A stretch of DNA of 52,563 bases, the filler included, from Bipalium vagum (taxonomy: Eukaryota): the NCBI GenBank assembly GCA_037834085.1. It is 3 parts of 3 records of this genome, joined end to end, with 100 filler letters (N's around TTAATTAATTAA, not from the genome) between each part and the next. Parts side by side here need not be neighbours in the genome. Positions count along the whole stretch, not along the records: positions 1 to 18,796 come from JBBMKC010019059.1; 2 more parts are not named here. One strand, 5' to 3'. Of the stretch, positions 1 through 52,563 are shown one piece after another. Position 1 is the stretch's first letter; the number at the start of each line of letters is the position of its first letter. The notes beneath the pieces were generated by a model. It saw only the letters and a list, made by a program, of their open reading frames with translations, did no database searches and was not told the DNA's origin. Both the position numbers and the translations under genes were made by a program.

Positions 1-955
1 CATTCTCAAATTTGATTGGATTTAATGGATAAAAAGTATTATCAACCTCTACTCTTAACGATTTAATTTGATCATGTTTAAATAAACTATTATTTTTTAA
101 AAGATTGGGTTTATTCTCTCTAAAACCTAAAAAGATATAAATTGGTTTGTTTTTAACGTAAAATAAATGTACATTAACTGATTCTCCTTCAGGAAGAGGT
201 CTTTCTATACAAAGTCTTGATAAATAGTTTATATTAAATGTTTTTTCTTCATTAATAAATGATAAAAACTCGACTTGGGATTCTGTAATTAAAGTTATTT
301 TTGGAATATGTAATTTTAATTCAATCAACTTTATTTTTGGAGTACCTGTTTTACCATAAAAAATTTCTTTTTCCACATTTAGTCTTCTTGTAAATGTTAA
401 TTCTTCTTCCATGTTATAAATAACTCTACCAAAATATTGTAAAAATTCAAACATTAATTTTAATGGAAATAAACCCCCTAATTTAAAAGTTTTTTTACCA
501 TCCTTTTCAACTGTATTGATTGAATATAATTCTTTTCTTTTATTATTTTATTATCCTTTATTATTTTCATATACTTTTTTTTCATCTAATATCCATCCAA
601 ATATTCATCAATCATAAAAAAAATTAGTAATTGAATTTGATGGTCCTAAATATTCAATTCTTTCAATAGGAGCTGATCCTAATGTTAAAATTGCATTTTT
701 AAATAAATATGGGAAGAAATTGTTTTCTAAAGTCATATCATCACCTGTTTTTATATCTTCAATTTCAATTTTATAACTAAATAAGGCTTCTGATAATTCT
801 AAAACATTTGCTTTATTATATAAATTAAATGTTAAAGTGCTATCTATGTTTAAATTTTCTGATATTGCTGTATTTAATGATATAGATGTATAATCTCGTT
901 TTTGTACCATTAAATCTTGGTGGTAAATATTTTTGTTAAAATTTAGTTTTGTCAT
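1..955 (-). pseudogene. Polinton/adintovirus major capsid protein (double jelly-roll, hexon-like), N-terminal part
   Basis: From ATG at 955: MTKLNFNKNIYHQDLMVQKRDYTSIS...TLENNFFPYLFKNAILTLGSAPIERIEYLG, stop at 608-610, then FRGLFPLKLMFEFLQYFGRVIYNMEEELTFTRR...KPIYIFLGF...IKSLRVEVDNTFYP. This resembles the recalled Polinton MCP pattern (LF..I.Y.L...EIE..E.PG; PLK.IFGF...Y.KVIY). Confidence 0.8.
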
Positions 956-1023
956 TTTTATATAAATAAATATAATTAAAGCGAACCTGGTTCTAGAGCC
1001 TTCAGACTTTGTCCTCATTATTT

Positions 1024-1752
1024 TTATTCAAATGCAGATGGTAAAATATTTTCATCATCAAAATTAATAAATAAATATTTATATTTTTCTTTCATATGAA
1101 AATAACACAAACAATCAAATTCATCTTTTTCAATAAAATGGGCTAACATTTTTGAATAAATTTGGTTTTTATCAGATTTTGAAATTTTAAATAAAATTAA
1201 AACATTAGAATTATTTCGAATACTTCTTAATGGTAAATCAAAAAATGATTGTGATAAATATATTACTGAACATTTATTATGTCTTCCTCTGGTAAATACA
1301 TTTCCATAATATGTTGATTTTTTTCACTTATTGCATCATTAAAAATTATTAAATTTTTTCGATTTTTGTCTAATTCTTTTGGTGGAGGAATTTCATTTGC
1401 TTTATTACTTAATGTTACCCTTATTTGTCTTTGTTTATACTCATAGTCTTCCTCATGAAATTTTATTATTTTTTTTCCATAAACATTTGATAAACATCTT
1501 CTTTTGAAAATCCATAATTAAAACAATCTCTTATATATTTAAGTGCTGGTTAAAGTAAAACAGTTTTTGAAAAAATAATTAAGTTATCATAATCATTATA
1601 GTTAGGAGTTAATAACATTTTATATAACAACTCTGTTTTTCCAGAACCAGAAGGACCAATAATTAACATTTTAAATATTGAAGGTAAATTTTTTGATTAT
1701 TAATTTTTATAGAATTATCATTTAAGAAATCAGAACAAAAGTTTTCATCCAT
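1024..1752 (-). pseudogene. A32/FtsK-like DNA packaging ATPase
   Basis: Manual translation across frameshifts: LPSIFKMLIIGPSGSGKT (Walker A, 1634-1657), NLIIFND (degenerate Walker B), TRGRHNKCSVIYLSQSFFDLPLRSIRNNSNVLILFK. These are hallmark motifs of Polinton/virophage packaging ATPases. Missed by the ORF track. Confidence 0.92.
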
Positions 1753-1768
1753 TTTTTAAAATTAAATT

Positions 1769-2573
1769 TTAAACTTGTTTTAAATGAATTGTAAAACTAA
1801 CATCTTCTCCATTAAAATCTATAAATTCCCCATCTTCATCTTTAATTTTAAATCTTATTTCATTAATAATTTTCATTATTAAAGGAAAATAAATTGGAAA
1901 TTTTGGTCTTTCAATTATTCTAGATCCTCTAGAAACATTGTTTGAAGGAAAATCAAAAATATTATTTGTTTTTCTCCCATTAAAAAATTCTCCATTTGCA
2001 ATATTACATTCAATCATAATTCTATTTATTTTTGTAATTTTAACTGTTTTAGATTCATGATTTCCTTCCTTATAAATTTCATTTTATTCGAATCCTAATA
2101 TATCACCTAATTAATTTTCCTTAGGAAATGAAACACTACATCCTTTTTCTATTTTCATTATACAGTTTAAAGAAGTTAGATTTGCTTTTATTTATCTTTA
2201 TCTTTATCTTTTTATCTTTCACTGTTTATCTTTTAAAGGCTCTAAATCTTCATCATCTTTAAATCCATTCTCTATATATTTTGATATTTCAGAAATTTCT
2301 TATGTTCCCGGAGTTAATTTTAATTTCATAGTTTTATTCTTTCCTTTAGAATCTGTCACAGTTACATCTATTCTATTATTTTTTTTCTGTAATATTAAAA
2401 AAAGAATTATAAGTTGAAAAATAAACTACAGCTAATTCATAATTTAAATTTGGATCAAGAATTAGAGGAGATTCAAACGTGTAGGTTATATCTGATTTTT
2501 TAGTTTCTTCCATAAATGATGTTGAAAATTTATTTGATAATTGATTTGATATTTATTTTAAAGTAACATCGAT
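1769..2573 (-). pseudogene. Minor capsid protein (penton, single jelly-roll)
   Basis: FESPLILDPNLNYELAVVYFSTYNSFFNI..NN..., LTPGTxEI, LGDILGF, INRIMIECNIANGEFFNG...IIERPKFPIYFPL...IKDEDGEFIDFNGEDVSFTIHLK. Matches the recalled adintovirus/Polinton penton pattern; broken by frameshifts. Confidence 0.85.
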
Positions 2574-2631
2574 TTTTAAAGAAAAAATATAAATTTGAGA
2601 ACAAAGTCCAAATTTCAAGCAAAGCTCTCAT

Positions 2632-3407
2632 TTAATCAGAATCTATATCAAATTTAACAAGTATTTTTTCATGTGTCTTCAGATTAATTTTATTCCGTTT
2701 TCTTAATTTATTCAATATTCTTAAAATTAAATGATCCAAATTATCATGACCCGCTTTTTTAGAAGCTAAATATTTTCTTAAAGTTATGAATTGGTCAACT
2801 AAGTGTTTTGGTTTATAAACTCGATATCTTTCTCCCTTTCTTTTTAATTCTATATTTTTATTTAATTCGGTTTTTATATTTTTAATGTAAATACTAACTA
2901 AACTATACTTTGATAATTTTATTATTTGAAGATAATTACTCAAATCTTTTATGTTAAATGGTGTTTCTCTATTTGAATTAAATTTACCTTCTATTATTAA
3001 TTTTAAATCTTCAGTTAATTCAAATAATTTTTCATCATTTGGTTTTGGATCAATTGGATTACTATATTTTAGAAATACATTTTCATTTTTTTAATAATTA
3101 AAAAGGGTATTTCATTTATCATTAATGTGTTACATATCATTGATGGATTAATGGATGTCGTTAAATTAGAAGTATTTAAATCCAAAGTTAAAGATGGTTT
3201 ATCTATTATATTTTCTTTATTAACTTTTTCATTTTTTACACTTAGAACATCGGTAGCTGGTTTATGAAAATATGTTAAATCTTGTTCAAAACCTCTTTCT
3301 GCTTTCCACTGATTTAATTGATTAGTTTTAAAATTTATTTCGTGCATCAATTAATTCTTTTAACTTTTTAGATTCTTTTTGTATATAACTTTCATTTTTA
3401 TTCCATT
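2632..3407 (-). pseudogene. Conserved adintovirus/Polinton protein (called gasderminX in adintovirus nomenclature, from memory)
   Basis: The pieces join into one gene: N-terminal VKELIDARNKF...FEQDLTYFHKPATD, middle FELTEDLKLII...KDLSNYLQII, C-terminal HLVDQFITLRKYLASKKAGHDNLDHLILRILNKL (consensus L..RL.LL.ASK.AGN....EI..I..EL). Includes ORFs 3069-3350 and 2632-2943. Confidence 0.6.
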
Positions 3408-5110
3408 CCTTTTTTTATAAAAATAATTAAATATAAGGTAAAGATATTTTGGTAACTTGGTATTTTTAATATTTCTCTCTGTTGGAAAATTTGAGAGTCG
3501 AGGTTCAAGATCTGATGTTACATAATACTAAATTTTAATATTTTCACCTTTAAATTTTCATCTATTTTCGAGTAATTAAAATAATATTATTATTAAGATT
3601 TTCATGTTCTTTTATTTTATTTTTATATGGTTCAAATGTGCAATTATCTATTAACCATAATAAATCTTTAGAATAAGATTTTTAATTCAGATTTTTAAGA
3701 TTTTAAATCTTTTTCTTCTAAGTTATAATTTTTTGCTCTTAAATATATTTCATAATATTTATTTTATGGAAATTTATTTAATTCTTGATTGGATAGGTTA
3801 TTTAAATCGTTTCATTTTTTAAGAAAATTTTGATTTTTTCAGTTTTAAAGTTTTTGACTATTTTTTAATGATTTTTTATAGTAATTTTTTTGACACATAG
3901 TGTACTACTTTGGAAAACACGTTTTTGACAAACGAATGAGTATGTGTCGGGAGGCACTCATATGAGTGAGTGAGGAAGAAAACTTTTGAGAATATTCTAT
4001 TGCTGGCATCCAGATTCAATTAGGTGAAAATTTATGTTTATAACTATATTTTTATTATAACATTCAAATTCAAAATATATTACAGATGATATTTTATTTC
4101 TTAAATATTTTTTAAATTTATGATAATCTTCGTGTAGTGTTTTTGCTTTTTAAATTTCTTGACATAAATTAATGTTTACTTGACATATTTTCTGAATGAA
4201 ATGAAGACAGATAATTATAATAATTAATTTTGTCTTTTATTATTTAAGATTTGAAAAAAATATTCATATTTCTACACAAACCACAATCGTTGTCATATTG
4301 AAAAAAGTTTAAAAAGTAAACAATTGAAAAATTTTAACTCAAAATTAAACAGGCAAATGTAAGACAATATTTCTATTATTCAAGGTTAAATTATAAATTT
4401 CAACTAAATATATATTTTTAAAACAAAGTTTTTTGAAAAAATCTACTGTTGAAGGTGCTCTATATTGTTGCAAATATTGTGAATCTATCTTGTAGTACGT
4501 AAAATTAATTAAATTAGCACATGATCTTAAGAAATGTTATTACAACTCATAAATCTGATAAGTAATAAAAATTGAAAAAAATTCAGAAATAATTTAAGAA
4601 CAAAATAATGACCTGATAAAATAAAATTTTAAATATTAATTAAAATTAGACCCGTCACGTCCTAAATATGTATTGTTATGGAATGCCGGTTCATATTACG
4701 GTAAACATAAATAAATGGTAATTAAATACACATCATCCTAATTCCTAGAGTAGAACATAGCAGAACTAGTATTAAAGTTTGTTTTGTTAGTCAGCCTGTG
4801 AGGAATTCATCATGTAGAGACAAGAACTTCTGTTAACATATTAACATAAGCTAGCATGTAACAACTTAAAATTATAATACTTTAAGTATCAATAATTGTA
4901 TTTTTGGTTTCAAAATTTTCAAAACATTGAATAATTGAAATTAAAATAACATTTCATACAATTATAAGAGGCTTCGACTGAAAATTGAATAGAAACTACT
5001 AAAAGTATAATACAAGAATTTTTCAGAAAATTACTTTTTTTCATGATGGATATCTTGAGAATGGTAATAAAATGTAATAATTAAGAAAAGAGGGCAAGAT
5101 ATTATTCATT

Positions 5111-6517
5111 TCAAGGAAATAAAGTCTCTATAGATCCTATAACAAATTTTGTCTTATCATCAGGTTTTCTTGACATGATTGTCTCACACGAATCGTCCAT
5201 GCTGGTGAGATAGCCAAAACAAAGGCTTGGTGTGGAATGCCCAAAAAATAGATCGATTTTAACTTGGTTGTCCTTTAATGTTTCCTTTCTCAAGCTGACA
5301 ATCCCAAAAGATTTATAAACATCGCCAGTTAGAAAAGCCGAATTCATGAAGTTACTTTCAAGGAAAGACTGAAATTTATCGTGAAAATTATCTTTTTCGT
5401 CAATGGACCAAGAAGAAAGAGCTTCACAAGTTTTCATTGGAAGCATGGTACGCATCAGCTGCTCTCCCAATCCAGTGGAAACTGCCGTCACAGAGATGCC
5501 GTTATCTTTCTGTTCAGAATAACATCCGCAACCAAACATACATGACTGACCCAGCCTACCATCTTGTTTCAAAAATATTCCTCCACTCGAAGTAGCTGAG
5601 ACAACTCTTCCCAGGCTATCGGCAATAATAACCCCAACGGTATCCAATAAATTAGGATTTAATGACAATTGGTTATTGATCATTGACTTCGGCTTCTTTC
5701 TAGGGACTTCGTCCTCACTGTCAATGTCGTCATATGTTTTTTCTTTTTCAAATAACAGCTTTCTATACTTATTACATTTTTTTTGTCTTTCAACTGTGAT
5801 CAACTCTTCCTCATTGACGTGACTGATTTCTAAAAATAACCAAGAGTTGATGGTTACTAACAGTTAGTAAAATTTATTTTTTATTAATACTCGAATTATA
5901 TAAAATATGTACTATCATTATTAATATTATCTGAAAGGATTAAATGAAAAATTATTAGGATTTAAGTTAAATAATAAATCAAATATCATAAGAATTGTAC
6001 AATCAGCTTCAATTTATTTTTTTAAAAACTATTTCATATAATTTTAATTAAAAATAAATTAATAAAATATAAAATTTGTACTTTGAGAAATTGCCCATTC
6101 AGTTGCATCTTTTCCAACCAAAACACTTGGTGGATATCTACCACCACTCAATAAAGAGTGTTCTAATTGTAAATTAAGCAATTTTTCGGCTACAAGAATA
6201 GGATTTTTAATATTACTTAAACATCCCACAGCTCCAAATCTCAGACTTTGTCCACACATGATTGCTGCTTCACACTGTAATTTACCACTAATTGTTAAAT
6301 TGCTACCAATTCCGGCATTAGTACAAGGATCATTTTCTAAAACTTTTACACCTTCTACAGCTGCTCTTGAAAGCTCAGGAAGGGAAACAGAACAATTTTG
6401 TAAAGCAGACTTAACTGCACTACAAGCCTTTTTACAAACATTCTTGTAAATGTTTTCACGTGATAATGAATGATTACCAGCACCGGAATGGCAAATAATA
6501 ACATAGTTATAATTCAT
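5111..6517 (-). CDS. TASP1: Threonine aspartase 1 (taspase-1, Ntn-hydrolase / type 2 asparaginase family); exons 6517-6082 and 5829-5111, 384 aa
   Basis: HSGAG, LENDPCTNAGIGSNLT, CEAAIMCG, FGAVG, NPILVA in exon 1. Autocleavage site LLD/TVG, SATSSGGIFLKQDGRLGQS, STGLGEQL and GHSTPSLCFGY in exon 2. Phase-1 GT..AG intron 5830-6081 joins the exons in frame. Confidence 0.95.
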
Positions 6518-7029
6518 TTTAAAATTTTATAGATTAGTGAAAGTAAGAAATCAAGTTAAAAAATAAGTTATAAATTTAAAAAATTTTAAAGTTCTAAATA
6601 ATTTAAAATTTCACCATATTGAATATTTAAACAAAACCTGATTTAAAATAATTAATAAATAAATTTAATGAATAAATACCATTTTATATAAAATATTTTA
6701 AAATATTAATGGTACTTGTTTCGTTTTTTTAAACCAAAAAGTTTATATAATGTTGCTTTAACGAGAATTTTCGTTAACAGTGTTGTATTTATTATATTTT
6801 CTTATGTTATTGTGAAATGTAGACTTTAGAATTCCAGTAATTTCTGAAATATTTCTAATTGTAAAATTTAGATTAAAAATCTGGATAATTTCAAATGTCA
6901 TTGATAAATTATTCTCTGATAATTCATTTGTGAATTCTATAAAAAAATCAATCCTAGAGTGTCAATGAAACATGTAGCGAGATGTTTATACAAAAAACAA
7001 AAAGATTTACCTGTATCGAGAGAGATACA

Positions 7030-8073
7030 GATGAATTCAGGACAGTGTTTCTGTTGTGGTGATAGTGATCATAGAAGATTCTCTAAACAGTCGTCTTTTT
7101 CAGCAATTATGCAAAGACATGAACGCTGATCACGAGTTTTTTTTTTATTTTACTGAAATGGTCGGTTGTTTTTATGAGTTGAAAGAAAACATCAAAATAT
7201 TCATGGAAATACAAGGAAAATATGAATTTGCGGAATATTTTGATCATCAGTCTTGGTTGTGCAGAATCACTTATCTATCAGATATATTAGAACAATAAAA
7301 TATCCTGAATCTTAGATTACAAGGAACAAATTTAACTATTATTGAATTTCAAAACAATCTTAGAGCATTCATAGCGAAACTGCAAAACTGGCGAAGTAAA
7401 ATGGATACAGGAAACATGGTAATGTTTGAAAAACTATCCAGTTTAATAGAAGAATTTAAATGCGAAACCAATGTCCATTTAAAAAAATAGATCACAAAAC
7501 ACCTCAAATCTCTTGAAAATGAGCTTCTGTATTATTTCCCTGAGTTAACTAAGGAAGAAGCTTTACTAGTACGATATCCCTTTTCTGATTCCATTGATAT
7601 ATCCAGTATTACTGATGATGTGCAAAATGAATTCTTGGACTTTCGGAACGATTCTGCGTCTCGCCACTTATATGACGAAAATCTGCTAACTCAGTTCTGG
7701 TGTGCTATGTATCACTCATATCAAAAAGTAACAATGATTGCGTTTGGAATGTTACTTCCCTTTGCTTCAACATATCTATGTGAGAGTGGATTTTCATTAC
7801 TTCTGCAATTGAAAAGCAAAACAAGAAACCCACTTAATGTTAATGCCGAAATGATGTTGGCATTAAAACAAACGCAACCACGTATTTCAAAGCTAGGCAA
7901 TAAGTTACAATATCAGCAGTCTCATTAAGATTTGGTGATTGAATAAATGTTTTGTTATTAATAATAAATTATTAGTAAAATTAATTGTTATTGTATTTTA
8001 TATATAGTGGGGTCGCCAACATTTGTTTGGTTCAAAAATGGGGTCGCGATACCAAAAAGGTTGGGAAACCCTG
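7030..8073 (+). mobile_element. hAT transposon relic (Buster/Charlie group), 3' half with right TIR
   Basis: WLCRITYLSDI, LNLRLQG and the C-terminal dimerisation motif LLPFASTYLCESGFSLL...RNPLN, with internal stops. The end reads GGTTGGGAAACCCTG (8073), followed by CTTTAAAC (TA-centred 8-mer). Confidence 0.88.
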
Positions 8074-10866: not shown

Positions 10867-11895
10867 TTAGTGTACAAGTTGAAAATGATGATTCTTTCAG
10901 AGTGCAATAATGATTTACTTTATCAAAAAAATTTCTTTAATCCAAGTAAATTTCCACCGAGATCTACAACTTTGACCCATTTTTTGGTACTTTAGAATAC
11001 CGTTCAAGAAAAGCTTTTGATCCACTTATCAATCAACTCATCAATCAAATATTTAACATACTCGAATTTTTGAAGAGCTGTTCGAAGAGACAATACATCA
11101 TCCATCTGAACAAGTAATAATCAGATGGATTAATTTCTGGCAAATACCGCGGATGGGGTAAGACATGTTAACCAAATTTATTCAACATTTCCTAAAACTG
11201 TTTCGAAACATGGGGACTAGCGTTATCATGTAACAAAAGACATTCCTGTGTCTTTTAGCACACTCTGGTCGTTTTTCTTGCAATGCATCGCGTAACATGA
11301 GAAATTATTTTTCGACTTTTTGGATTCTATTTTTCATCCCCAGTGACGATAAGATGCAGAAACGATTTTCTTCCGTGCTTGTTTCACAAGTGGTTTTTTG
11401 CTTTTCTTTGTTTCGCTCATTCAATTCACATGTTATCCATTCTCCTTCTTTTTGAATCTTCCCCATTGCTCGTAGTTGGCCAGAAATTGCTTGTTCGCTA
11501 ACATTTAAGGCACCTGCAAGTTGTTTTTGACTTTGTACGGGGTCTTCATCCAACAATGAAACAATTGAAACAATCAAACAAACGTTCAAATGTTTTTTGG
11601 GATATAGTTTTTTAGTTACTATTAGTTTCCAGAATAATATGATAACTCTCCAATGCGTTTTTCGTTTGAAAAGAAAGAAAAATTAATAAGTTCCGAAAAT
11701 GATATTTATTTAGCTGAAATTAAGACACATTAATTGACTAAAATTATACATTATGCTCACTTTAGTGATCTCAGACATTTTTAATTATATGGCGTGAAAG
11801 TATAATATAAACAAATGTATATCAATATTTAAAGGATTCATATTAATAAAGGTGATTATCGTTTATAAATCGTCATTTTCAATTTGTACACATAA
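10867..11895 (-). mobile_element. Mariner (Mos1/mauritiana-like) element, decayed
   Basis: TA-flanked inverted ends TTAGTGTACAAGTTGAAAATGATGATT / TTATGTGTACAAATTGAAAATGACGATT. Motifs GEWITCEL, IVTGDEK, LLHDNASPH, LPHPRYLPEINPSDYYLF. Confidence 0.88.
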
Positions 11896-17535: not shown

Positions 17536-17594
17536 AAGACTATGTCAACCGAATGGTAGGACAAATGATATAAAATTTTTTTAGTAGTATGATG

Positions 17595-17702
17595 GGTACT
17601 ATTTTACTTTAACAACCCTGTTATAAGCAGACCAATCATAACACAGGGTTATTTTTAGATATTATTTTATATAGATCATTTATGTTAAAGTAAAATAAAA
17701 CC
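17595..17702. mobile_element. Short Merlin-type MITE copy
   Basis: Begins GGTACTATTTTACTTTAACAACCCTG..AGACCAATCATAACACAGGGTTATTTTTAGAT and ends GTTAAAGTAAAATAAAACC; same family as 45822-46081. Confidence 0.75.
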
Positions 17703-17939
17703 TAATTATATCATACAAATCAATTTTCTAATATGGTTCCTTTGAAATGATAACGGGTTGGAGAGCACAGCATAATTTTTTTGGTTCTATTTTACTTTCG
17801 CAACATTTCGCAGCATAAGTCTGTGTACATGGAAAAATCATAATTTTTCTTTAAAAAACCATTGAGAAACATTACTTTAGTAAAAAAATATTTTTTAGAA
17901 AATTTCTTTTAATAACTTTTTAATATTGTTTCAACAATT

Positions 17940-18796: not shown

Positions 18797-18896
18797 NNNN
18801 NNNNNNNNNNNNNNNNNNNNNNNNNNNNNNNNNNNNNNNNTTAATTAATTAANNNNNNNNNNNNNNNNNNNNNNNNNNNNNNNNNNNNNNNNNNNN
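18797..18896. other. Artificial contig-join spacer (N44-TTAATTAATTAA-N44)
   Basis: Exactly 100 nt with a central 12-mer giving stops in all six frames; the identical structure recurs at 35128-35227. Confidence 0.95.
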
Positions 18897-19467
18897 ATAT
18901 ACTATTTGGGACTGATCTTCATCTGGGAAAAATTCTTCAGAAATTCTCAAAATTATTCTTGAAATTCTAAAATGATCATCAAATTTCTAAAATTCCCTAA
19001 CAATTCCCTGAAAATATTTTCATGATTATCCTTATTATTTATTAAAATGCCTCTTTTAGACTGCTTTAAAATTAAAAATTATTTTCGAGGATTTTCTTAT
19101 TTTTTTAAGTATCTTAAAAATAAAAATCCTGGGAAATTCTCAATGATTTTCAAGTATTAATTAATTTTATTTATTAATATTATTAATAATAATATTATTA
19201 TTAGTAGTAGTATTTATAAATTATTTATAATCTTTATCATTTATCTTTCTCCGGGGGTGTCTTGGTAAACCCAACACTTTAGTTATTTTTTAAAGGTTAC
19301 TTAAGTTTTTAAATGAAATATAATTAAAATAATTTTCATGTTGTTTAATTGTACTTCAAAATGAAATTCGTTGAAAATTCAAACTATTTGGTTTGAAAAT
19401 TTCAAATTCAAAAATTTGACATTTTTTTTATTTTTATAATACTGAAGTAAGATATTTTTAAAATTCT

Positions 19468-20055
19468 CCATTTGGGGCTGCTTCAGCCATAAAGGTGTGG
19501 GAGTGCTGGTAAATGTCACAGACAAAAAGATAAATGCCGCATGTTACCAAGAGATTTTGAAGAATTGTTTGCTTCAATCTATTTCTAGACTGCATCCAGA
19601 TGATGAATATCTATTTCAACAAGATAAAGCGAAATCGGTGAAAATGTGGATGAAACAAAAACCGATACCTGTTATACCGGATTGGCCACCACAATCTCCT
19701 GATTTAAATCCAGTTGAACATATATGTGAATATATTGATAGAAGAATTCATGGAAAGTATTATCAACAAAAAAGATCTATGGGAACTGGTCAAGTAAGCA
19801 TGGGAAGCAATTCCACGTGAGTTCATCAATAATCTGTTTGGAGTATACCTATGTGTTTGAAGGAAGTAATCAAATTGCGCGGTGGATCTACCGAAAAATG
19901 CTGAACATATTTTTAATGTATTGCATTGGTAAATAAATATTCCATAACATGCAAAAAACAGATTCTCATTATCTCTACAATTGTTTCTTTTATAGCAGTT
20001 TAAATACTAAATTGTTGAAAAATTTAAGGTATTAACTTTTTTATGGACTGTTGTG
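19468..20055 (+). mobile_element. Tc1 (DD34E-type) 3' fragment with right end
   Basis: WGCFSHKGVG, YLFQQD, DWPPQSPDLNPVEHI; the end reads TTATGGACTGTTGTG|TA. Confidence 0.85.
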
Positions 20056-22229: not shown

Positions 22230-23778
22230 AAATTTATCAAAGCCTTCGCCGCCAATTGCTTTGGCCAGTGAAATAATTTTTGATGATGTGGTTGTTATTT
22301 GATTTGGTACGCCTTTATTAAATACGCATTCAGGTCAAACTTCTTTCCAACACGCGTTTAATGTGTATGGTTTAATTTCAGCAATTGCTAATGCAACATG
22401 GTTTATACAGTTTAAAATATTAAAATCTTTCCAAACATCTGTAACTGTGATTGATTCAGTTTCTAGCTTATCGAAAATGTAATGAAAGATTGACTTAAAA
22501 TAATATTTTTGAATGCCGAAATAATCCCCTGATCTAATGGTTGAATTAAGCTAGTTGAATTTGGAGGGATAAAAATTATGTATATGTTAAGATGTTCTAC
22601 CTTTTCATGATCTGGTGCATTATCAAGAATTAATAAGATATATTCAATTATATTATATTCTCTTTCATATAAATTTTGACTTCAGGTACGAAGCAGTTAT
22701 TAAACCAATCGCTGTAGTTACCAAAGCTTTTTTGTTAGCCATAAAATGTATAGGTAGCTTATTTCGATCTTTTCCTTTTATTCCACGTGGTTTTAAAGAT
22801 CGATTTACAAGCAGTGGTTTCAATACCCTATCTCCAGATGCATTGCTGCAAACCAGTAAAGTAACTCGATCTGTGGCAGCTTTAAAACCACTTGCAGATT
22901 TTTCGAAACTTGCTATATAGGTACGATTGGACATTTTTTTCTAAAATAATCCAGTTTCTTCAGCGTTGAAGACTTGATTGGCACAATATTCACCATCTTT
23001 AATAATTTTGGAAAATTCTTCAGGGTATTTTTTTAGCGGCTTCTTGGTCTGCAGAAGCGACCTCACCTTTTACCTTCATATTTTTTTCATATTTCTTTTG
23101 ATAAAACCAGTTAGCCATCCCGTAGTAGCCGAAAATGAGGATGTAGATGACTCTGATTCCCTTATCTGTTCGTAAAACCGTAGAGATTTCTCTTTAAGTA
23201 AATATCTATTTATCGGAACTCTTTTTTGAGTCAAATCTTCAATCAAAATTACGAGGGCTTTTTCTGTTTTTTCTTTTTAAGGATCTCTTGAATATGATGA
23301 TAATTTAGAGCTCAAATTTGTACCGGATCTAATAGATTTCTGTATTGATACCTCTTTATTTTAAATTGTTCTAATTGTTGATGCACCCAACTTTAAATGT
23401 TTACCAATTGCTGTAGATTTCTCTCCATTCGTCAAGCGATCAAGTATCATAATTCTGGTTTCTAAGGAAATTGCACTTTACTTCTGGGGTTTAACTTTAC
23501 TGTCACACATTTTACTTAAGAAATAATAAGTGAAGTTTAAATTTAATTAAACACAATTATTTTTGAAAGAGCTTTTTAAAAACTAAAAACTTTTATTTAA
23601 ACAAATTTAATAAAACCGTATACGATTATATACAAAATATATAACAATTTTTAAAAAACGTACAAAAAATCGCATATAAATAGAGTATAGTTTCATTAAA
23701 AAAACCGCATAACTTCAAAATCGCATTAAAAAATTCGCATAAAAAGAGAATTGCGTGTATATAAATAGAGGATGGCTG
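22230..23778 (-). mobile_element. pogo/Tigger transposon, decayed
   Basis: From ATG 23510: HTH (AISLETRIMILDRL..GEKSTAIGKHLKLGASTIRTI), FSATTGWLTGF, SGFKAATDRVTLLVCSNASGD, LDNAP, FIPPNSTSLIQPLDQGII. Tigger-like end CAGCCATCCTCTATTTATA at 23778 with ATGCG subterminal repeats. Confidence 0.9.
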
Positions 23779-27319: not shown

Positions 27320-28342
27320 CTGGACAATGCACAAATTTGAGCAATTATTTATGACGATTGGAAAAATAACACAAGCACAAATGAAACTGTCTCAAAACTT
27401 AACGAGGTGCTTCGTGGAGGAACAATGAAACTGCGAACAGTGCATAGTTGGATCAAAAAATTCAATAGTGGCGATTTTTCATTGGAAGACAAAGAGAGGT
27501 CTGAAAGCCCAAAAGAGTTGGAGGATTATCAAATTATGGACCTTCTTGAACAAAACAGATCAATTAGTGCTAAACAAATCGCTTCTGAGTTAAATATAAC
27601 CGATACAGCCATAAGAAACCAACTGAAAGCGTTAGGATTCACTTGTAAACTCGACCAATGGGTTCCCCATCAAGTAGCTGAAAAAAACAAGTTGGATCGC
27701 ATTGGAATTTGTTCAAGACTTCTCGAAAGAAACCGAAATGATCCTTTTCTCGATAGGATAGTCACTTGCGATGAAAAGTGGATCTATCATGACAGCATAA
27801 CCAGATGAAGATAGTGGTATTTGAAAGGAGAGCCTCCGCACAAAATTGAAAAACGCAACCTTACACGAAACAAGGTTCTTTTATGCATTTGGGGGATTCT
27901 CATGGAATTATTTATCATGAGTTTCTCAAATCCGAGGAAACCACTAATTCTGATGTCTATTGTGACATGCTTGTTCATTGTTCATATTGTTCATGCCATT
28001 ATGAAGGAAAACCGGAGCAGTTTGATAAACCAAAAACAAGTGATTTTCCACCAAGATAATGCCAAGCCTCACAAATCAATGAAGACATTGAAGGTTTTTC
28101 AGGAATTGAACTGGACTCTAATGGAACATCCGCCATATAGTCCCTATATCACCCCATCCAATTTCCGGGTATTACAGAATCACTTGATGGGTAAAAATTC
28201 TAAGAGTTCAGAAGGTATAAAGAATGAAGTACTTTCTTTCTTTCATTCAAAAGATCGAAATTTCTTTAATACTGGGATCAATAAACTTCTAAATAGATGG
28301 GAGGCAGTAATAGAAAAAGATGGAGAATATCTGGATGATTAA
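27320..28342 (+). mobile_element. Mariner (DD34D) transposase pseudogene, near full length
   Basis: QWVPHQ, IVTCDEKWIYHD, KVLLCIWG, FHQDNAKPH, HPPYSPYITPSNF, GINKLLNRWEAVIEKDGEY; stop at 27806-27808 and frameshifts. TIRs too decayed to call. Confidence 0.92.
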
Positions 28343-35127: not shown

Positions 35128-35227
35128 NNNNNNNNNNNNNNNNNNNNNNNNNNNNNNNNNNNNNNNNNNNNTTAATTAATTAANNNNNNNNNNNNNNNNN
35201 NNNNNNNNNNNNNNNNNNNNNNNNNNN
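35128..35227. other. Artificial contig-join spacer (N44-TTAATTAATTAA-N44)
   Basis: Same 100-nt structure as 18797-18896. Confidence 0.95.
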
Positions 35228-36312: not shown

Positions 36313-36463
36313 NNNNNNNNNNNNNNNNNNNNNNNNNNNNNNNNNNNNNNNNNNNNNNNNNNNNNNNNNNNNNNNNNNNNNNNNNNNNNNNNNNNNNNNN
36401 NNNNNNNNNNNNNNNNNNNNNNNNNNNNNNNNNNNNNNNNNNNNNNNNNNNNNNNNNNNNNNN
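36313..36463. other. Scaffold gap (151 N)
   Basis: Run of N with no linker. Confidence 0.97.
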
Positions 36464-39500: not shown

Positions 39501-42500
39501 AAAATAAGTAATGTAATCTTTACTCGATTTCGGTTTTTGTCAAGGCGTCCACATCGTCATAAAAATGGGGAATTTGGATTTTGCCTTTATAATCTCTCAG
39601 GGAGTTCAATATAAAAACGAGGTCGGCCATCGGTTCGGCGATGCAGCCTCCGTAAACGCCGGAATGTAAATCGTAATTGGAACATTCTATTTCAATGAAA
39701 AAATAAGTCACTCCTCTCAGTCCGTACGTAACGCAAGGTGTCTCGTCCCCCAGCCAATAGTTGTCACTGATAACGATGAAGTCCACGTCCTAAGAATAAT
39801 TATAAATAATTGTTTGGAACAAGTGATTATTTTTCCAACCGATTAGATATTTTTATATTATTCACAGACATTAAAATCGACTTTCAAACTGAACGATTAA
39901 AGTCAGAAAAAAATATCCTATAATGTATACCAGTTAACTTTAGAACCCGTGATAAATTTATTTGCGGAAAGTCTTGTAAGGCAGATTGTAAGTCATTGTC
40001 AATTAATATTTTTATAGTAAATAATAAAAATTCAAAGTGTATTTAAAAGTCCCTAAAAGTTGTTTTGATATCGTCCCATTTTTTGAAGAAGTGAGAAAAC
40101 CCTTTCGAAAATGTTTTCACTTATAAAAGCCTGGCATTTTATTTAGCTGACAGAAAAGTTTGGATTCTCAAAGATTATATTTTCAGTAATGTTTTGTTTG
40201 AATTGAGTCTTGAATTTTAAAGTATTGGCTTTAGAGCTGAACATTATTTCTGCACTAATCTAATATGAATTACTTAACTCTTTGACGAGCGGCAGTTTTA
40301 ATTGTATCACTTTTTTTAAGACTTCGAACTACTTGAGTAATAATAAAACAATTAGGAATAATTTTTATATCCGATTTCGTAATTAATAGAAATGTCTATT
40401 TTGTTCGATTTGCAACAAAATGAAACTTCTGCTGCCTCTAAAATCTAAAAATTCATGTCTATAAAGGGTTAAAGATTGTTACCAAATATATAGGAACTTT
40501 TGTGACGAAATAAATCAATTTTTGAAATTTTAATTTAAAAATATCTTGATAAAAAATGTCAAAAATTAAATTTTAAGTAATCCTTAGGGTAATCAATTCA
40601 TTTATGCATGAAATTTTAGTTTCTAAAATTTAATATATACAAGGTGTCCCATAAGTCCCCGCGGAAAGTAAACTTTAATATTTCTTAAACAGATTGAGAT
40701 ACTTAATCGTTTGCTTTATAAAATTAAAGGCAAATCTTTTATTTTTTATTTCATATAAAAATACAACAATTGTTTGAAATGACTACCATTAACTGATATA
40801 CATAAATTCATATGTTTTACAATATTTAAAAATACACTATTCAAAGTTTCTGTGGTAACACTTTTTATTTCTTCGGTGATTTTTGTTTTTAAATCGTCAA
40901 TATTTTTGATTTCAGATTTATATATCTTATTCCTTAAGTGGCCCTATAAATAGAAGTCAAGAGGAGTTAAATCTCGTAAACGTGGAGTCCATCGAATTGA
41001 ACCATCTCTTCCAATCCACCGGTTCGGAAAATTGGCGTCAAGATACCGTCGTACATTCGCTGAAAAATTCGCAAGAGCTTCATCTTGCTGAAATACCAGA
41101 GATCGTATTTTGTACATTTTCCTCAATTCAAACATAAAATAGTCCTGAAGCATTTATAGATAATTTTTGTCATTAACAGTCTCATCTTCAAAGAAATACG
41201 AATCGATAATTTTTTTTGACATAGCACACCAAGCATTAACCTTCTGAGATTTTTTAGTTATTTCTAAAGTAATATGTGAATTACTTTCTGACCAATCTCT
41301 GACGTTAACTTTTTTTACTAATCCTTATACGTAAAACGTTGCTTCATCTAAAATGAAGATATTTTTCTGAATATCCACATTTTCCAACATTGGGACCAGT
41401 GTTCGCGAAATGGAACATGTGGTTGCAACAGATCGAACACTGCCGGTCACTTTCAATAACTTCACTCATTTTCTGAACTTCATTTTCAGTGATCAGCCTT
41501 GGTCTTCCAGAACGTTCACGATCTTCTACCGACCTAATCTCACAAAAATGATGAAAAGTCTCTCTTATAGCACTTTCACTTGTTGAGGTTTTCCCAAATT
41601 CGGCATTTAATTTCCGTTTAACAACACAAATCTAGTTGAATTTGACCATTATTTTGATTCTTAACTTCAAATCAAGCGGCATTTGTTAAATCTAATTTTA
41701 AAATATTAAAACAAAACTTAGACTTACATACTTTAATATTATATAAATAGAAATTTCAATCGATTGAATTTACTGAAAGATATTTAAGTTTAGTTTCCAC
41801 GGGGACTTATGGGACACCCTGTATAATATAATTTAATTATAAATTAAAAAATCAATACCTGTTAAAGAATCCTTTTTATAAGTCAGTAAATCATTTATAA
41901 AAATAATCGAGAATTATCTTTTAATAATAAAAAACTATTTCAGAAAGAGACCTTTAAAAATTTATGTTTTTCTTCAATCAATAATGCTCTGAAACCTTCG
42001 GATCCCGACTCTTGGTGAGCTTCGAATAGAAATTTTAAATTAACAGGAAATGGAATTTGCAATTTCTGAAGATAAAAGTATAAATAAGTGTTAATTCTCG
42101 ATGACTACTTTATGTTATAATAATAATTATTATTATAATTGATAATTAAGAATATAATTGTGAAGAGAGTTTCTAGATATACCTCGAAGAGGGACTTCCA
42201 GAAACACCGAATCATTTGTGTAACATACATTTTTAGATCAGTTACTTAATATATTGTACACTTAATATTATACTTAATTTTATTTTGTATGTTGTTTAAT
42301 TTAAAATTTTATGTGAGGGACCTTTCGTTCTCATTGAAATGATAGATTTATTCTTAATTTTAATTAGGTTATCAAGGTTGTAATATTTTTATAGCTATAA
42401 ATCGTTGTAGTCAATTGTTTTCATTTTTATTTCAGTCAATTAAAGTCTCTAGGACATGTAAATTTTTGGAGTGAAATTTATTTGTCAGCATCCATTAAAA

Positions 42501-45500
42501 AAGTATAAAAAATAAAATACGGCTTCAGCCTCAAGGAATATTAAACATAACAGTACCAAAGAATTATATAGAAAAATTTTAACAAAACTTTGTTTTTGAA
42601 ATTAATAATTCAGTTGAATTTTTTATTCCATTTTTGAATAACTGGCCATCCACACTTAATTATAAGAACAGAGTAAAAATGACCTCAGGTAGCATTTTTT
42701 ATACTAAAAATCAATTTGATTAAACCTTTATTATTCTTCGTTACTTAACTACTTTATCAGCATGATTTAAAGTTCTCAAATAACATTGTAATTCGAAATA
42801 GATGCAGCATGTTGTTTTTCTTATAAATGACTAATTAAATCTCAAAGTAATAGTAATTTTTATCTTTAATTTTGTAATTATATAGTATATTATTTAAATT
42901 TTTGGAAAATGGTCGATATTAAGGTCGCTGCACTACCATAAAACGCTTCGCTAATTAAAAAAATCACTCTAAGACTGGATTCTAAAAATTATTACAACAA
43001 AAGAAATATAAAATTCATAAATATTAAATTAACCTTGACAAAAGAACAACAGTGATATTAAAGTTCAATCTTAAATACATTATTATAAATTACTTATTAA
43101 ACAATTATATGTTTATGCAAAAATATATAGAAAAATATTCAAAATATATATAATTCTATGCAAAAATATATATAAATCTATTCAAAATATATAGAAAATT
43201 ATTCAGAAATATTTAGAAAATTATTCAGAAATATTTAGAAAATTATTCATAAATATATAGAAAAAAATTCGATTTTTTCTATTTAAATTTGATCACATTT
43301 TAGTCAGCCAAAAATATCAACTGCATGGTTGCTATTAAAATGTCAGTTTTCATTGCTTTGTCATTTGTTTTCTATTAAATCAAATTTACGGGAATTTTAT
43401 GCTTCAAAATCAAAGACGGATCTTTCAATGGACTTTATTAGTGACAAGCTATGCAATCATTTCGATCGAAATCCTGAGGATGTATTGGTGATAGACAAGT
43501 GCAGGTTCCATCAACGCAAAGATGTTATTAAGTTGTTGACAGAATGAGGTATTGCTTACAGATTTCTGCGACCATACTCGCATAAGCTGTAATTCGCAAA
43601 TGCTGTATTATCCTTTATGAGAACCATTATAGATCGGGACGATTGATTACTCAAGTACTCATGCATAACTATATAGATTTAAGTGATTATTTTCGCAACA
43701 TGAGGTGGTTTATAGAAAAATCTTGGCGAGACAATTATTTATTTAGTTTTTATTTCCATTATATATTTCTGAAAATTTTTCTATATATTTTGAATAATTT
43801 TCTATATATTTCTGCATAACCCTGTAATAAACAATAAATTAATTATTTTAAAAGCTTGTTTAATTAATCATAGTTTTGATAAGATTTTTACATTTAATAA
43901 TTTAAAGTTTCTAAATTTATAAAAATCATATTTTACTTGAAAATAATCATTTTTTTGTTTGGATCTACAGGAACTTAACTAATTATTATCTATATTTATT
44001 TACGTATCACATTTCTCAAGACTATCTATTTATTTCATTATTACGGATATCAATATAATTTTATGAAATATAAAAATTAAGGAAAAAAGAAATACATTCA
44101 AAATAAAAGACTATCAAAACGTTTTCTGTATACTTTCTTTTAAAGGAGTTCAAACATTTTAAGAATTAATAATGTTTTTATAAGTTTAAACACGTATTAA
44201 TCTTAACTGTAATTATTCCTGAGATATGAAGTAAAGGACGGTTCAAAAAATTATTTTTATAGATTTCTGAGTTTATCCCAAGACCTGATGTTCGAATTAG
44301 TAAATATTGAGATCTTCAGTACTAATAGATGTCCAAATCATAACTTTTTTTAAAGTTTTGATTTTTTTCAAAATGTTATACCAATTGAAACAGTTTCAAT
44401 GTTGCTGGTAATAGCCATATTTTCTTTACATGGTTGTATTGCATAAAATGAAATAAATTTCACCAAGAATAAATTCTACACAATCGATCACATTTCCGCT
44501 TTGCTTGAGATTGTTGGGTTTCAGTTCATAAGTTTCAGTAAGTATCTTTTCTATCTTATGATATTTAATTAGGTCGACAAAATTCTGATATGACAAGGAA
44601 CACAAAATCAGCATATTTTCCAAGTTTTCAATGATCTTAGGTGCTTCTTCAATAAAAGAAAAAAAGAAATAAATTTCCCATCAATTCACTTTTTTGACAA
44701 AAGCAGATCTACCATCTTTTTATGTACTTTGAGCTTACAGTCCTCTCTGTCATAGGCAGTCGCCGCTGCTGCAAAAGAAAATAAAATAATTTATGCAGCG
44801 CCAGCTGCCTGTTATATAATTATATAAGTCTACTAGTACAAAAATAATCTACTTGAAAATATAATCCACTCAAGCAAAAGAGAAATTAATTAATTACAAA
44901 GAATTAGGAATAAATATTTACTTAAAATGTTTATTAATATTACTTTGAAAGATTTTATTAATATTATTAAGTGTTACATCTAAATACATTAAAAATAAAA
45001 ATAATTTTTAATTTTATAATTAATTTCAATCAAAAAATTTTAAAAAATATAGAATTGAAATGCCACAGTTCGATATTGAATTTATGTTTAGCAATTTCGA
45101 TTTTTTCCAAAAAATAATTAAAATTTACTGACTTCAAACCTCTTGAAGTTTATATGCTTAAGGAAAAATGGGGTGGAATTAGGAACAGGCGTTCCACTGT
45201 AATTTGATTGTAACTGCCTATTTTGAAGTAGATAATATAATTCGATTAATAAATTGGTTATTTGTATGGTGGGATATGAAAGGACCCATTCATTATGACC
45301 TCCTCCAAGCTGATGAAACCCTTAATGCGGAATGTTATAGCAAACAATTTCTGCATTTGGCTAAACAAATTGAGAAAAAGACCTTTTTTCTGGCAAGGAT
45401 CGCGTAAGACCGCATGTAGCGAAACATACTCAGGAAACAATTTTACAGTTAGGCTGGGAAGTTCTTCCTCCAGACCTTGCTCCTACAGATTTTCATTTGT

Positions 45501-46594
45501 TTCGTTCAATGCAAAATGAATTAGCCTGATGTTATTTCAAAATGTTGACCAGATACGAGATTTTGTCAAGAATTATCTTGCGTCAAAACAAATATCTTTC
45601 TATCGTTCCGGAATTCAGCAATTACCAGAAAAATCGCAAAAAATGATTTCCAATAATGGATATTATGTTGATGACTGATTTTTTGAGTCCCTATCGTGTA
45701 AAAATAAATATATTACCTTTTGATAACATTTTATTTTTTTAAAAATGGACTAAAACTTATGCCTACATCTAATAATTATCTGACTATACCCTTCGGGAAA
45801 CTTTTTGATATCAGATAAATTGGTTCTATTTTACTTTAACAACCCTATGTTATAAACCGACCAATCAAAAAATAGGGTTATTTTCAGATTTTTTAAAAAT
45901 TAAACATTTTGAACTTCTTATAAGATGGATCTATTATAATTTTTACCTGTTAAATACATTAAAAACATAATAATTTTAATAAAAACTTGTTAAAAAATGC
46001 GAAATAAAATAAAATCTAAAAATAACCCTGTGTGATGATTGGTCTGTTTATGACACAGGGTTGTTAAAGTACAATAGTACCAATAAATTAATTAAAAAAC
46101 CTGAAAGGCTTCAATGACATTCAGCCAAGTAACACAGGGTCCTTTATCATCCGATGATCCTCTGCCCACAAGATTGCCGGTTACTTCCACCAAATCAAAC
46201 GGATCTGTATCCCAACCCATTTCATCAGCAGGATCCACATCAAGATGGCCATAAACCAGCACCGTTCTTTTGGTCAAATCTCGGCCCAGTCTGCCGATAA
46301 TTACTCTTGGTAAGGGAATGAACTCTCCATTGATTCTCCTTTCCACTCCAACTTTTCGCAATTGAACCTCAACATTAAGCCTGAAGTAAGTGAAAGTTTA
46401 CTTTCACACAATTCTCAGTTAAAGTCTTACTCTGTTAATCGAGTGCCGAACCAGTTGATCATTTTGTCGCAATCCTCTCGAAACTCTTTCAAGTTAGAGA
46501 TGCTCTTGTAGTCACACGCGCATGCCAGACGGTTACAGTAACGTTTTTGCCTCGAATCAAAATAGTCAAAAAGATGGGACAGCTTATAGTTCAT
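36572..46594 (-). CDS. CNDP2: CNDP2-like M20A dipeptidase family protein; exons 46594-46431, 46380-46101, 42065-41952, 39789-39524, 37478-37295, 36841-36572; terminal exon(s) not visible
   Basis: [85 protein letters not shown]. All six exons join in frame through GT..AG introns. Orthology versus paralogy to CNDP2 is not resolved. Confidence 0.92.
37720..38080 (-). mobile_element. Mariner 3' fragment (intronic)
   Basis: Decayed [23 protein letters not shown] and [11 protein letters not shown] motifs. Confidence 0.6.
40640..41821 (-). mobile_element. DD41D (rosa-type) Tc1/mariner element with both TIRs, in CNDP2 intron 3
   Basis: TA-flanked TIRs CAAGGTGTCCCATAAGTCCCCGCGGAAAGTAAACT / CAGGGTGTCCCATAAGTCCCCGTGGAAACTAAACT. 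FQQD and LTPLD are separated by exactly 41 residues; NRWIGRDG motif; RSGRPR. Confidence 0.9.
43108..43824 (+). mobile_element. Non-autonomous IS630/Tc1-like element whose TIRs consist of tandem ~21-bp units
   Basis: Units like AAATATATAGAAAATTATTCA in tandem at 43120-43265 and inverted at 43760-43815. Right end TGCATAACCCTG|TA. Internal [11 protein letters not shown]...YRFLRPYS (DDE_3-like). Confidence 0.75.
45260..45772 (+). mobile_element. Mariner 3' fragment with right end
   Basis: [47 protein letters not shown]; end AACTTATGCCTACATCTAA|TA. Confidence 0.85.
45822..46081. mobile_element. Merlin-type MITE, 260 bp
   Basis: About 70-bp TIRs beginning GGTTCTATTTTACTTTAACAACCCT / GGTACTATTGTACTTTAACAACCCT; 8-bp TSD GATAAATT / AATAAATT. 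GG termini with an 8-bp TSD fit Merlin. Confidence 0.85.
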
Positions 46595-48200: not shown

Positions 48201-48253
48201 CTAAATAAGATCGCGCAGATGACAACCAATCACTGACCAATAATTTTTGACCA

Positions 48254-48568
48254 TTGATTGAAATCAATTATGATATTGTTAAGGCAACACTTGAAGAAGA
48301 ATTTTTACCTTCATATTCCCCGTTCCTCAATCCCATTGAGAATATGTTTTCCAAATGCATCCGACGAGAAAGACCGGATAACGAAAAGTGTATATTTGAA
48401 TTAATTGAAAATGTAACAATTACCGCTGATGATTGTACAGTATATTTTCAACATATGCTTGTATTTCTTCCGAAATGCATAAAAAGAGAACTAATTACGG
48501 AAGGCTAACATTTTATGTGAAAAAATATAATTGAATGTTAAATATTTGAAATGTGAGGTTAAACCCTG
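48254..48568 (+). mobile_element. IS630/Tc1-like (DDE_3) 3' fragment with right end
   Basis: EFLPSYSPFLNPIENMFSK, ITADDCTVYFQHM; end GGTTAAACCCTG|TA. Confidence 0.8.
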
Positions 48569-49034
48569 TATCTTCACACATTTCCGGTTTATTAGGAACC
48601 ATTTTGAATGGCCTGATAATAATAGGCTAAAAAATTATGTATCTATTACTCGATAATTTACATTAGTAAAATACTCAATGCATGTTTCGATTTGTAGGCT
48701 TAATTGCCAACCAAATGACTGTAAAATATAATATTTTCGAAATCATTTCTTCTTATTTGAATAGGTTGCAGGTCTGTTTTTGAGATAGGTATAAGTAAAA
48801 CAATTTCAACTTGGTCACTTGACAAGTTCAACTTGGCAATATTCTGTTGAACCCTGATAAACCGAGAGTGTTTTGTTGAATTCGTGAGTAGCCCACTGAA
48901 ATGGGTCCACATAAGTTTCGTGTAACGTAAGGTCATGTAGGAAGAGGAAATGGATAATTGATACATAAATAAAATCAATATAGAAGTATAAATTGTATTC
49001 ATTAAAACAAAAATCTACATTTAAAATATTTTTG

Positions 49035-52547: not shown

Positions 52548-52563
52548 GTAAGAAATAAATAAA

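Follow-up and report, generated by a model that had tools for sequence, protein, structure and literature searches.

The left end of the window, the 52,563-nucleotide stretch of Bipalium vagum DNA analysed here, is occupied from position 1 to about 3830 by four broken genes set close together on the minus strand and transcribed in the order gene 1, penton (minor capsid protein), packaging ATPase, major capsid protein (MCP). The gaps between them measure approximately 58 nt (gene 1/penton), 16 nt (penton/ATPase) and 68 nt (ATPase/MCP). Only four stop-to-stop pieces of at least 100 aa are present on the minus strand in 1-3909, in keeping with the initial annotation's view that the virion genes are largely hidden from the ORF track. 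For each region we counted the fewest stops and frameshifts that a read-through has to cross and compared this score with 200 shuffles. The MCP requires 3 breaks (shuffle mean 16.7), the ATPase 5 (12.8), the penton 7 (14.6) and gene 1 9 (21.4+/-2.5), and for none of the four did a single shuffle do as well (0/200 each); the control flank at 3910-5100 requires 15 breaks against a shuffle mean of 16.9, with 54 of 200 shuffles as good. The MCP and penton genes are intronless, since they read as single or abutting tblastn HSPs, and length and spacing suggest the same of the ATPase gene and gene 1. The earlier description of four co-oriented pseudogenes in this order is borne out. No second copy of the element, the MCP or the penton was found elsewhere in the window, and an Rfam search returned 0 matches.

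The MCP gene begins at 955 on the minus strand and runs past the left edge of the window (<1), so that about 95 residues, judged by its relatives, are absent. It carries 4 in-frame stops in 318 codons and no net frameshift, and an 18-bp tandem repeat at 539-577 lies inside the disrupted stretch. The gene matches the Pfam DJR-like family PF21738 (E=2e-14, 54 bits, cut-off 27). A full HMMER search yields 117 relatives at E<=0.001, the best being P0003 (413 aa, 45% identity, E=1.4e-51), whose residues 5-315 align in one single-frame tblastn HSP; all nine of the 117 relatives that were tested match PF21738, eight of them above the cut-off. In a quick tree of 62 of the 117 matches, from which 55 under 380 aa were left out and whose rows include no named references, P0001 pairs with P0003 (SH-aLRT 97) inside a seven-row clade (99). 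A word-index search with the MCP read-through retained 0 of 852 candidates, PDB sequence searches with the MCP gave no credible match, and its profile matched none of the PBCV-1, virophage and adenovirus capsids by sequence; PHROGs and NCBIfam are without an MCP or penton model. The Pfam match, the relatives and the HSP point to an MCP pseudogene of the Polinton PY/hexon type, encoding a predicted double jelly-roll capsid protein.

The second gene of the cluster (1769..2573, minus strand) shifts frame once near 2383, is interrupted by 8 in-frame stops and contains a 14-bp tandem repeat at 2197-2233. It is 61-65% identical to the intact 258-aa protein P0120, which aligns in two abutting tblastn HSPs (residues 5-64 and 64-258). 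Taken together, P0120 and P0121, both intact, are 52-64% identical to the window gene, and the five closest pentons are 46-66% alike among themselves. By eye, the family's pattern agrees with that of PX proteins published for Polintons, the closest rows being Nematostella P-4, Nasonia, Tribolium and aphid (PMC4028283 suppl. 3). The fold was predicted on the approximately 60%-identical relative P0120 rather than on the window's own sequence; a first penton model, built from a 3-sequence alignment, reached pLDDT 36 and was unusable, and its fold search was disregarded. The AlphaFold model of P0120 has pLDDT 88. Its top Foldseek match in the PDB is the mavirus penton (E=1e-11), followed by adenovirus penton and capsid entries, and giant-virus and virophage pentons are also among the structure matches. 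Global TM-scores to solved pentons are low, at 0.33-0.39 with an rmsd of about 13 A (Foldseek), although VIA superposes 129 residues of the jelly-roll core at 2.9 A. At Z>=8 VIA retrieves 7 of 48,161 chains, every one a virus capsid entry. In the ESM Atlas, most of the clusters around intact P0120 are viral (feature score 0.98, TM 0.87). Sequence searches say less: a 30-sequence penton profile has PBCV-1 P1v1 as its sole, weak match in the PDB (E=0.42), a PDB search with the penton piece gives nothing credible, and none of the 30 penton relatives matches a Pfam penton family beyond scattered weak matches. We find that this gene sits one gene from the MCP, as pentons of Polintons commonly do (PMC4028283). 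Its similarity to P0120, together with the P0120 model, argues for a penton pseudogene of the Polinton PX type with a predicted single jelly-roll fold. The initial annotation had named a failure to match jelly-roll folds and A32 ATPases as the outcome that would speak against it; this was looked at for the MCP and the penton, and both matched.

Between these two genes, at 1024..1752 on the minus strand, lies a pseudogene of about 240 codons that probably encoded an FtsK/A32-type genome-packaging ATPase. Its motifs are spread across three frame changes and comprise a Walker A (1657-1634), a degenerate Walker B-like strand (1352-1335), an Arg motif (1290-1276) and a hydrophobic strand ending in Gln (1263-1249), all read on the minus strand; these correspond to the four types of motif that PMC11703096 names. 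Two pieces match Pox_A32 (PF04665) colinearly along the gene, the N piece at profile 12-42 (E=0.0024, 17.8 bits) and the C piece at 114-189 (E=0.0041, 17.1 bits), each below the cut-off of 22.8. The middle piece has no A32 match. The N piece also matches 13 P-loop-type or chance Pfam families, among which AAA_29 ranks first, and both pieces are matched by a PHROG annotated as terminase large subunit; a PDB sequence search with the C piece produced nothing credible. The earlier ATPase call is backed by the motif set and by the colinear matches, each match staying under the Pfam cut-off, and the third gene is likely, from its sequence, to be an FtsK/A32 packaging ATPase.

Gene 1 (2632..~3830, minus strand; about 390 codons, 5' end uncertain) is decayed. 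Its break score is coding-like and its final 152 codons are open. The initial annotation had the gene order right, but its label of conserved protein for gene 1 was not supported, as no credible homologue was found in Pfam, PHROGs, the ESM Atlas, NCBIfam, the PDB or by phage tblastn. Going by motif resemblance alone, we take it to be possibly a PZ-like conserved protein of Polintons. One candidate Pfam DUF number for PZ-like proteins had no support in the literature and was dropped. The gene starts only about 80-100 nt from a candidate element end at 3904..3909, (ACT)2 on the plus strand and (AGT)2 on the coding strand. ACTACT is the commonest Maverick end motif (PMC8097293); since the plus strand of the window holds 13 copies of it, the copy at 3904-3909 is weak evidence by itself. 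Within the element T exceeds A, and by about 4200 this skew has reversed. The folding of 3840-3990 is unexceptional (z -1.72, 14/200 shuffles), and the partner terminal repeat and target duplication lie outside the window. An end of the element at 3909 is likely.

Taken as a whole, the segment is very probably one end of an integrated Polinton/Maverick-type (adintovirus-like) DNA virus, decayed in the germline of a host whose genome is AT-rich, transposon-rich and animal-like. The earlier reading is upheld as to a decayed stretch of provirus whose MCP is of the double and whose penton is of the single jelly-roll type, together with a probable A32/FtsK ATPase. The claim that such a capsid set defines Polintons or adintoviruses was overstated, as they are defined by protein-primed DNA polymerase B (pPolB) and rve integrase (PMC8502044, PMC11161782), and adintovirus-type virion genes are also paired with other replication genes (PMC11071296). 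As the initial annotation noted, pPolB, integrase and protease are not in the window: none is found among 104 ORFs of at least 62 aa to the right of the element. A leftward location of the three fits the geometry; the polymerase and integrase genes would lie left of the window or have been deleted. By analogy with the known family, MCP trimers of the intact virus would form the icosahedral facets and penton pentamers the vertices, the ATPase would pump the linear genome into the capsid, the polymerase would replicate it from its termini, and the rve integrase would perform insertion. Gene 1 probably supplied another conserved structural or core protein, the least certain step of the scheme. 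The present copy would make no functional virion protein and would drift neutrally. More speculatively, and at rather long odds, the seven-row MCP clade may represent a Polinton-type lineage of its own, with the order gene 1, penton, ATPase, MCP at a very short terminus, an unrecognised structural gene, fast-evolving AT-rich invertebrate hosts without described Polintons and possibly a non-canonical replication module or none. Two GTDB scans for relatives returned 116 and 375 pattern matches, none of them confirmed, and phage tblastn was empty for all four queries.

A question arises, does the virion module belong to a canonical element? It may instead be part of a chimeric or non-autonomous one, either a polinton-like virus that replicates and integrates by a different module or a capsid-only derivative, internally deleted and mobilised in trans. 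Adintovirus-type virion genes do occur joined to a primase-helicase and a tyrosine recombinase, or to RepE1 (PMC11071296), no replication or integration gene is in view, and an end-to-gene distance of about 80-100 nt is at the bottom of the 100-1500 bp range given for the repeats (10.1101/2023.08.22.554363). However, the end motif is of the Maverick type, and the missing replication genes are to be expected, because only 3.9 kb of the element are in view before the window ends within the MCP gene, compared with the 13-25 kb of Polintons. We consider such an element unlikely.

It is far less probable that the copy is intact or active, its breaks being assembly or sequencing errors, or that its genes were domesticated by the host. 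The assembly is a draft, other parts of the window have N-linker gaps, indel errors are more likely in AT-rich homopolymers, and the genes have kept high identity to their intact relatives; but in-frame stops and tandem-repeat insertions, not single indels, make up many of the breaks, and all four genes are broken whereas the adjacent taspase exons stay open over 155 and 250 codons. It is scarcely credible that the cluster is a piece of a virophage or of a giant virus (Nucleocytoviricota), or that host pseudogenes came together by chance. The Atlas clusters nearest P0120 are labelled mostly Nucleocytoviricota and the structure matches include pentons of both virus groups, yet these labels rest on few labelled members, the penton matches are fold-level (9-19% identity), and the lack of sequence matches between the MCP profile and the PBCV-1, virophage and adenovirus capsids speaks against such an origin. 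A chance origin of the cluster is excluded by the MCP relatives, the tblastn HSPs and the break shuffles. A decayed Polinton/Maverick-type provirus remains the preferred reading.

Host genes in the window encode taspase, M20 peptidase and FERM proteins and have GT-AG introns; Tc1/mariner and pogo remnants are also present. These genes and remnants fit an animal host. Most genomic Mavericks are degraded (of 3,913 vertebrate candidates 134 are intact; PMC8097293), split MCP genes occur in 13 of 72 reference Polintons (PMC4028283), and broken ends of such elements are already common as genome fossils. The value of the element is mainly for annotation: it marks a viral fossil missed by ORF-based gene tracks and records past Polinton-type infection of the host lineage. 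Because every gene is broken, it is uninformative on whether Polintons form virions. Its significance would be greater if the clade turned out to be unnamed, if intact relatives had their genes in the same order, or if pPolB and integrase were missing from the left part.

Like Polintons/Mavericks (class Polintoviricetes; PMC4028283, PMC8097293, PMC11161782), the element combines an MCP of double jelly-roll type, a single jelly-roll penton one gene away, a probable FtsK/A32 ATPase, intronless and tightly packed genes and a candidate (AGT)2/(ACT)2-type end in an integrated, degraded state. Polinton ends carry terminal inverted repeats, (AGT)2//(ACT)2 or (AG)3//(CT)3 termini and a 6-bp target duplication. 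Unlike Polintons/Mavericks, the element as seen in the window shows no pPolB, integrase, adenain-like maturation protease or paired repeats, and its first gene lies very close to the candidate end; unlike the vertebrate two-module Polinton layout, it has gene 1, penton, ATPase and MCP right at its end. Adintoviruses have been proposed to be recognised by an OTU-domain PolB, a chromodomain rve integrase, a hexon that matches reference adintovirus hexons reciprocally in BLASTp, and an animal host (PMC8502044, PMC11071296). The window element resembles the virion module of their Alpha (Mayetiola) class, with hexon, penton and FtsK in an animal-like genome (PMC8502044), and the insect and Nematostella PX rows, which the window penton resembles by eye, may belong with that class. 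For one Alpha example the figure text of PMC8502044 gives FtsK, PLA2X, Penton, Hexon, whereas Pfam gives no PLA2 match in the window, and named adintovirus proteins in BFVD are only 9-12% identical to the P0120 penton model. The penton also resembles that of the mavirus virophage (PDB 6g41/6g42) and the adenovirus penton base in having a single jelly-roll with an insertion domain (Foldseek E=1e-11, VIA Z 12.6), and with at most 13-14% identity to the P0120 model these are fold-level kin only. The nearest database proteins, P0003 for the MCP and P0120-P0124 for the penton, are intact, unlike the window genes.

The capsid and penton genes at the left end of the window form a decayed pair within a compact, operon-like cluster, which is likely also to hold a packaging ATPase gene and the end of the element. 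Four decayed coding remnants lie on the minus strand, gene 1 at about 3830-2632, the penton gene (gene 2) at about 2573-1769, the probable ATPase gene (gene 3) at 1752-1024 and the major capsid protein (MCP) gene (gene 4) from 955 to beyond base 1, with spacings of about 58, 16 and 68 nt; GC content is 21% in this first 3.9 kb and 27% in the remaining window. When we count the minimum stops and frameshifts needed to traverse each region, genes 1 to 4 require 9, 7, 5 and 3 breaks, whereas base-shuffled versions require on average 21.4, 14.6, 12.8 and 16.7, and for every one of the four genes 0 of 200 shuffles equal the observed count. Given that the flank at 3910-5100 is ordinary by the same test (15 breaks, mean 16.9, 54 of 200 shuffles), all four are genuine decayed genes. 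The element holds only four minus-strand pieces of at least 100 aa, so the ORF track overlooks most of these genes. Thus the initial annotation, which saw four co-oriented remnants in this transcription order, largely hidden from the ORF track, is borne out on both counts.

By its sequence, gene 4 is a decayed major capsid gene. Read in a single frame with stops entered as X, it carries 4 stops in 318 codons and matches Pfam PF21738, a double jelly-roll-like domain (E=2e-14, 54 bits, cut-off 27). Searching all 1.84 billion representatives with HMMER yields 117 relatives at E<=0.001, led by P0003, an intact protein of 413 aa (45% identity, E=1.4e-51); PF21738 is found in all nine of the relatives scanned, eight of them exceeding the cut-off, and a sequence search of the PDB with gene 4 gives nothing credible. 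P0003 aligns to the window by tblastn in a single frame and as a single HSP that covers residues 5-315, indicating that gene 4 has neither intron nor net frameshift and that about 95 residues lie off the window. Gene 4 pairs with P0003 (SH-aLRT 97) inside a seven-row clade (99) when a quick maximum-likelihood tree is built from the window protein plus those 62 of the 117 relatives, all unnamed, that reach 380 aa.

Gene 2 is identified as a decayed penton gene through the predicted fold of a relative. Its first two relatives are intact (256-258 aa, 64% and 52% identity), and a profile search extends them to 30, none of them named. One of these, P0120 (258 aa), aligns as two abutting HSPs of 65% and 61% identity; there is a single frameshift, near 2383, and of the 8 in-frame stops several fall in a 14-bp tandem repeat. 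An AlphaFold model of P0120 from an alignment of 30 sequences (pLDDT 88, pTM 0.72) retrieves 39 PDB matches at E<=0.001 with Foldseek, where the mavirus penton takes ranks 1-6 (E about 1e-11) ahead of adenovirus penton-base and capsid entries, and the named top matches in BFVD are minor capsid or penton proteins. With VIA-align, 7 of 48,161 chains reach Z>=8, all of them virus capsid entries: a PBCV-1 chain is best (Z 13.3, 2.9 A over 129 residues), and the mavirus penton and Sputnik score 12.6 and 12.0. Whole-chain TM-scores against solved pentons are low (0.33-0.39), which may reflect an altered angle between jelly-roll and insertion domain. The penton identity proposed initially is upheld by these matches. 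By eye, the family resembles published Polinton PX pentons in its pattern and is closer to the Nematostella P-4, Nasonia, Tribolium and aphid rows than to those of Ciona, urchin, frog and turtle.

Gene 3 is probably an FtsK/A32-type packaging ATPase. Its motifs span three frame changes and are ordered as in FtsK/HerA packaging ATPases (PMC11703096): Walker A at 1657-1634, a degenerate strand resembling Walker B at 1352-1335, an arginine motif at 1290-1276 and, at 1263-1249, a strand with terminal glutamine. Pox_A32 matches the N piece (profile positions 12-42, E=0.0024) and the C piece (114-189, E=0.0041), both under cut-off, and is the sole family at E<=0.1 for the latter. Against the A32 call, the N piece matches 13 families with AAA_29 on top, the N and C pieces are both matched as well by a PHROG labelled terminase large subunit, and the middle piece has no A32 match. 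Gene 1 is a coding-like remnant. Of its initial description as a conserved protein, the coding signal stands and the conservation finds no support: Pfam, PHROGs, Atlas (best 0.76), NCBIfam, PDB and phage tblastn searches give nothing credible. In its last 60 residues and in two motifs upstream of them, it may resemble a conserved insect-Polinton protein, possibly PZ.

The element likely ends at ACTACT (3904-3909), in agreement with (AGT)2//(ACT)2, the end motif most often seen in Mavericks (PMC8097293). The element's T>A skew flips by about 4200. ACTACT occurs 13 times on the plus strand of the window, about a 7% chance per any 300 nt, and no partner terminal repeat is found within the window. 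Just past the candidate end, 3910-3975 holds a small hairpin and a short stretch that matches 3893-3902 imperfectly in inverted orientation, so the true end could lie slightly right of 3909; folding there is unexceptional.

The host, an AT-rich and animal-like eukaryote, has genes and transposon remnants to the right of the element. A minus-strand taspase-1 (threonine aspartase) gene at 5111-6526 has two long exons with Asparaginase_2 matches, separated by a single GT-AG intron some 250 nt long (top PDB match threonine aspartase 1, E=2e-24); also on the minus strand are an M20 peptidase exon (46092-46397, E=1e-8) and a FERM-domain gene (48815-50868), divergent and read by eye, with introns of roughly 50-60 nt and a long low-complexity tail exon. 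Tc1/mariner remnants with HTH, Transposase_1 and DDE_3 matches lie at 11305-11682, 19446-19820, 27341-28342, 45183-45404 and 48251-48505, and a minus-strand pogo/Tigger-type remnant (HTH_Tnp_Tc5, DDE_1) at 22466-23276. Broken plus-strand ORFs at 7035-7928 have no Pfam match; we take them to resemble the C-terminal part of a hAT/Buster (ZBED-like) transposase. A small MITE-like element, its ends inverted, is present twice, at 17577-17807 and, inside an M20 peptidase intron, at 45798-46099. Two inverted-repeat pairs resemble non-autonomous DNA transposons, one at 40627-41834 (55 nt, 85%, 1.1 kb apart) and one at 50876-52563 (398 nt, 79%, 0.9 kb apart), and a 22/43-nt tandem array at 43099-43271 has an inverted copy about 550 nt off (43760-43828). 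Gaps in the assembly occur at 18797-18896, 35128-35227 and 36313-36463; two are 100-nt linkers in which two blocks of 44 N enclose a 12-nt spacer with stops in all frames, and these are scaffolding artefacts.

From what is described for the family, MCP trimers would build facets, pentons would occupy vertices, the ATPase would package linear DNA, pPolB would replicate it and rve would integrate it (PMC4028283, PMC11161782). This copy is unable to make virion proteins and is most simply, and very probably, a neutral fossil. None of the 104 ORFs (>=62 aa) right of the element matches the pPolB, rve or adenain families, as expected from the initial statement that pPolB, integrase and protease are missing from the window. 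That the cluster belongs to a chimeric or non-autonomous element is unlikely; an assembly error or domestication is a good deal less probable, and derivation from a giant virus or virophage is hardly credible.

We find that the fossil cluster functions like a Polinton virion module whose membership is incomplete; among the defining features tested, none failed. The claim that the capsid set defines Polintons and adintoviruses is contradicted by published definitions, which rest on pPolB plus integrase (PMC8502044, PMC11161782), and adintovirus-type virion genes are also described beside other replication genes (PMC11071296); therefore the capsid set alone is not enough to define the family. 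Otherwise the initial reading is real and broadly right, and the element is an ordinary example. Degraded Mavericks are reported to be far more numerous than intact ones (PMC8097293), and 781,111 endogenous dsDNA viral regions are reported from 7,103 assemblies (10.1101/2025.04.19.649669); the element adds one more degraded Maverick-type copy to an already common kind. It is doubtful whether the element comes from an unnamed clade that has a gene order of its own. The penton lies one gene from the MCP, the typical Polinton layout (PMC4028283), whereas the gene order is unlike that given for vertebrate Mavericks (PMC8097293) and unlike the labels on one Alpha adintovirus map (PMC8502044).
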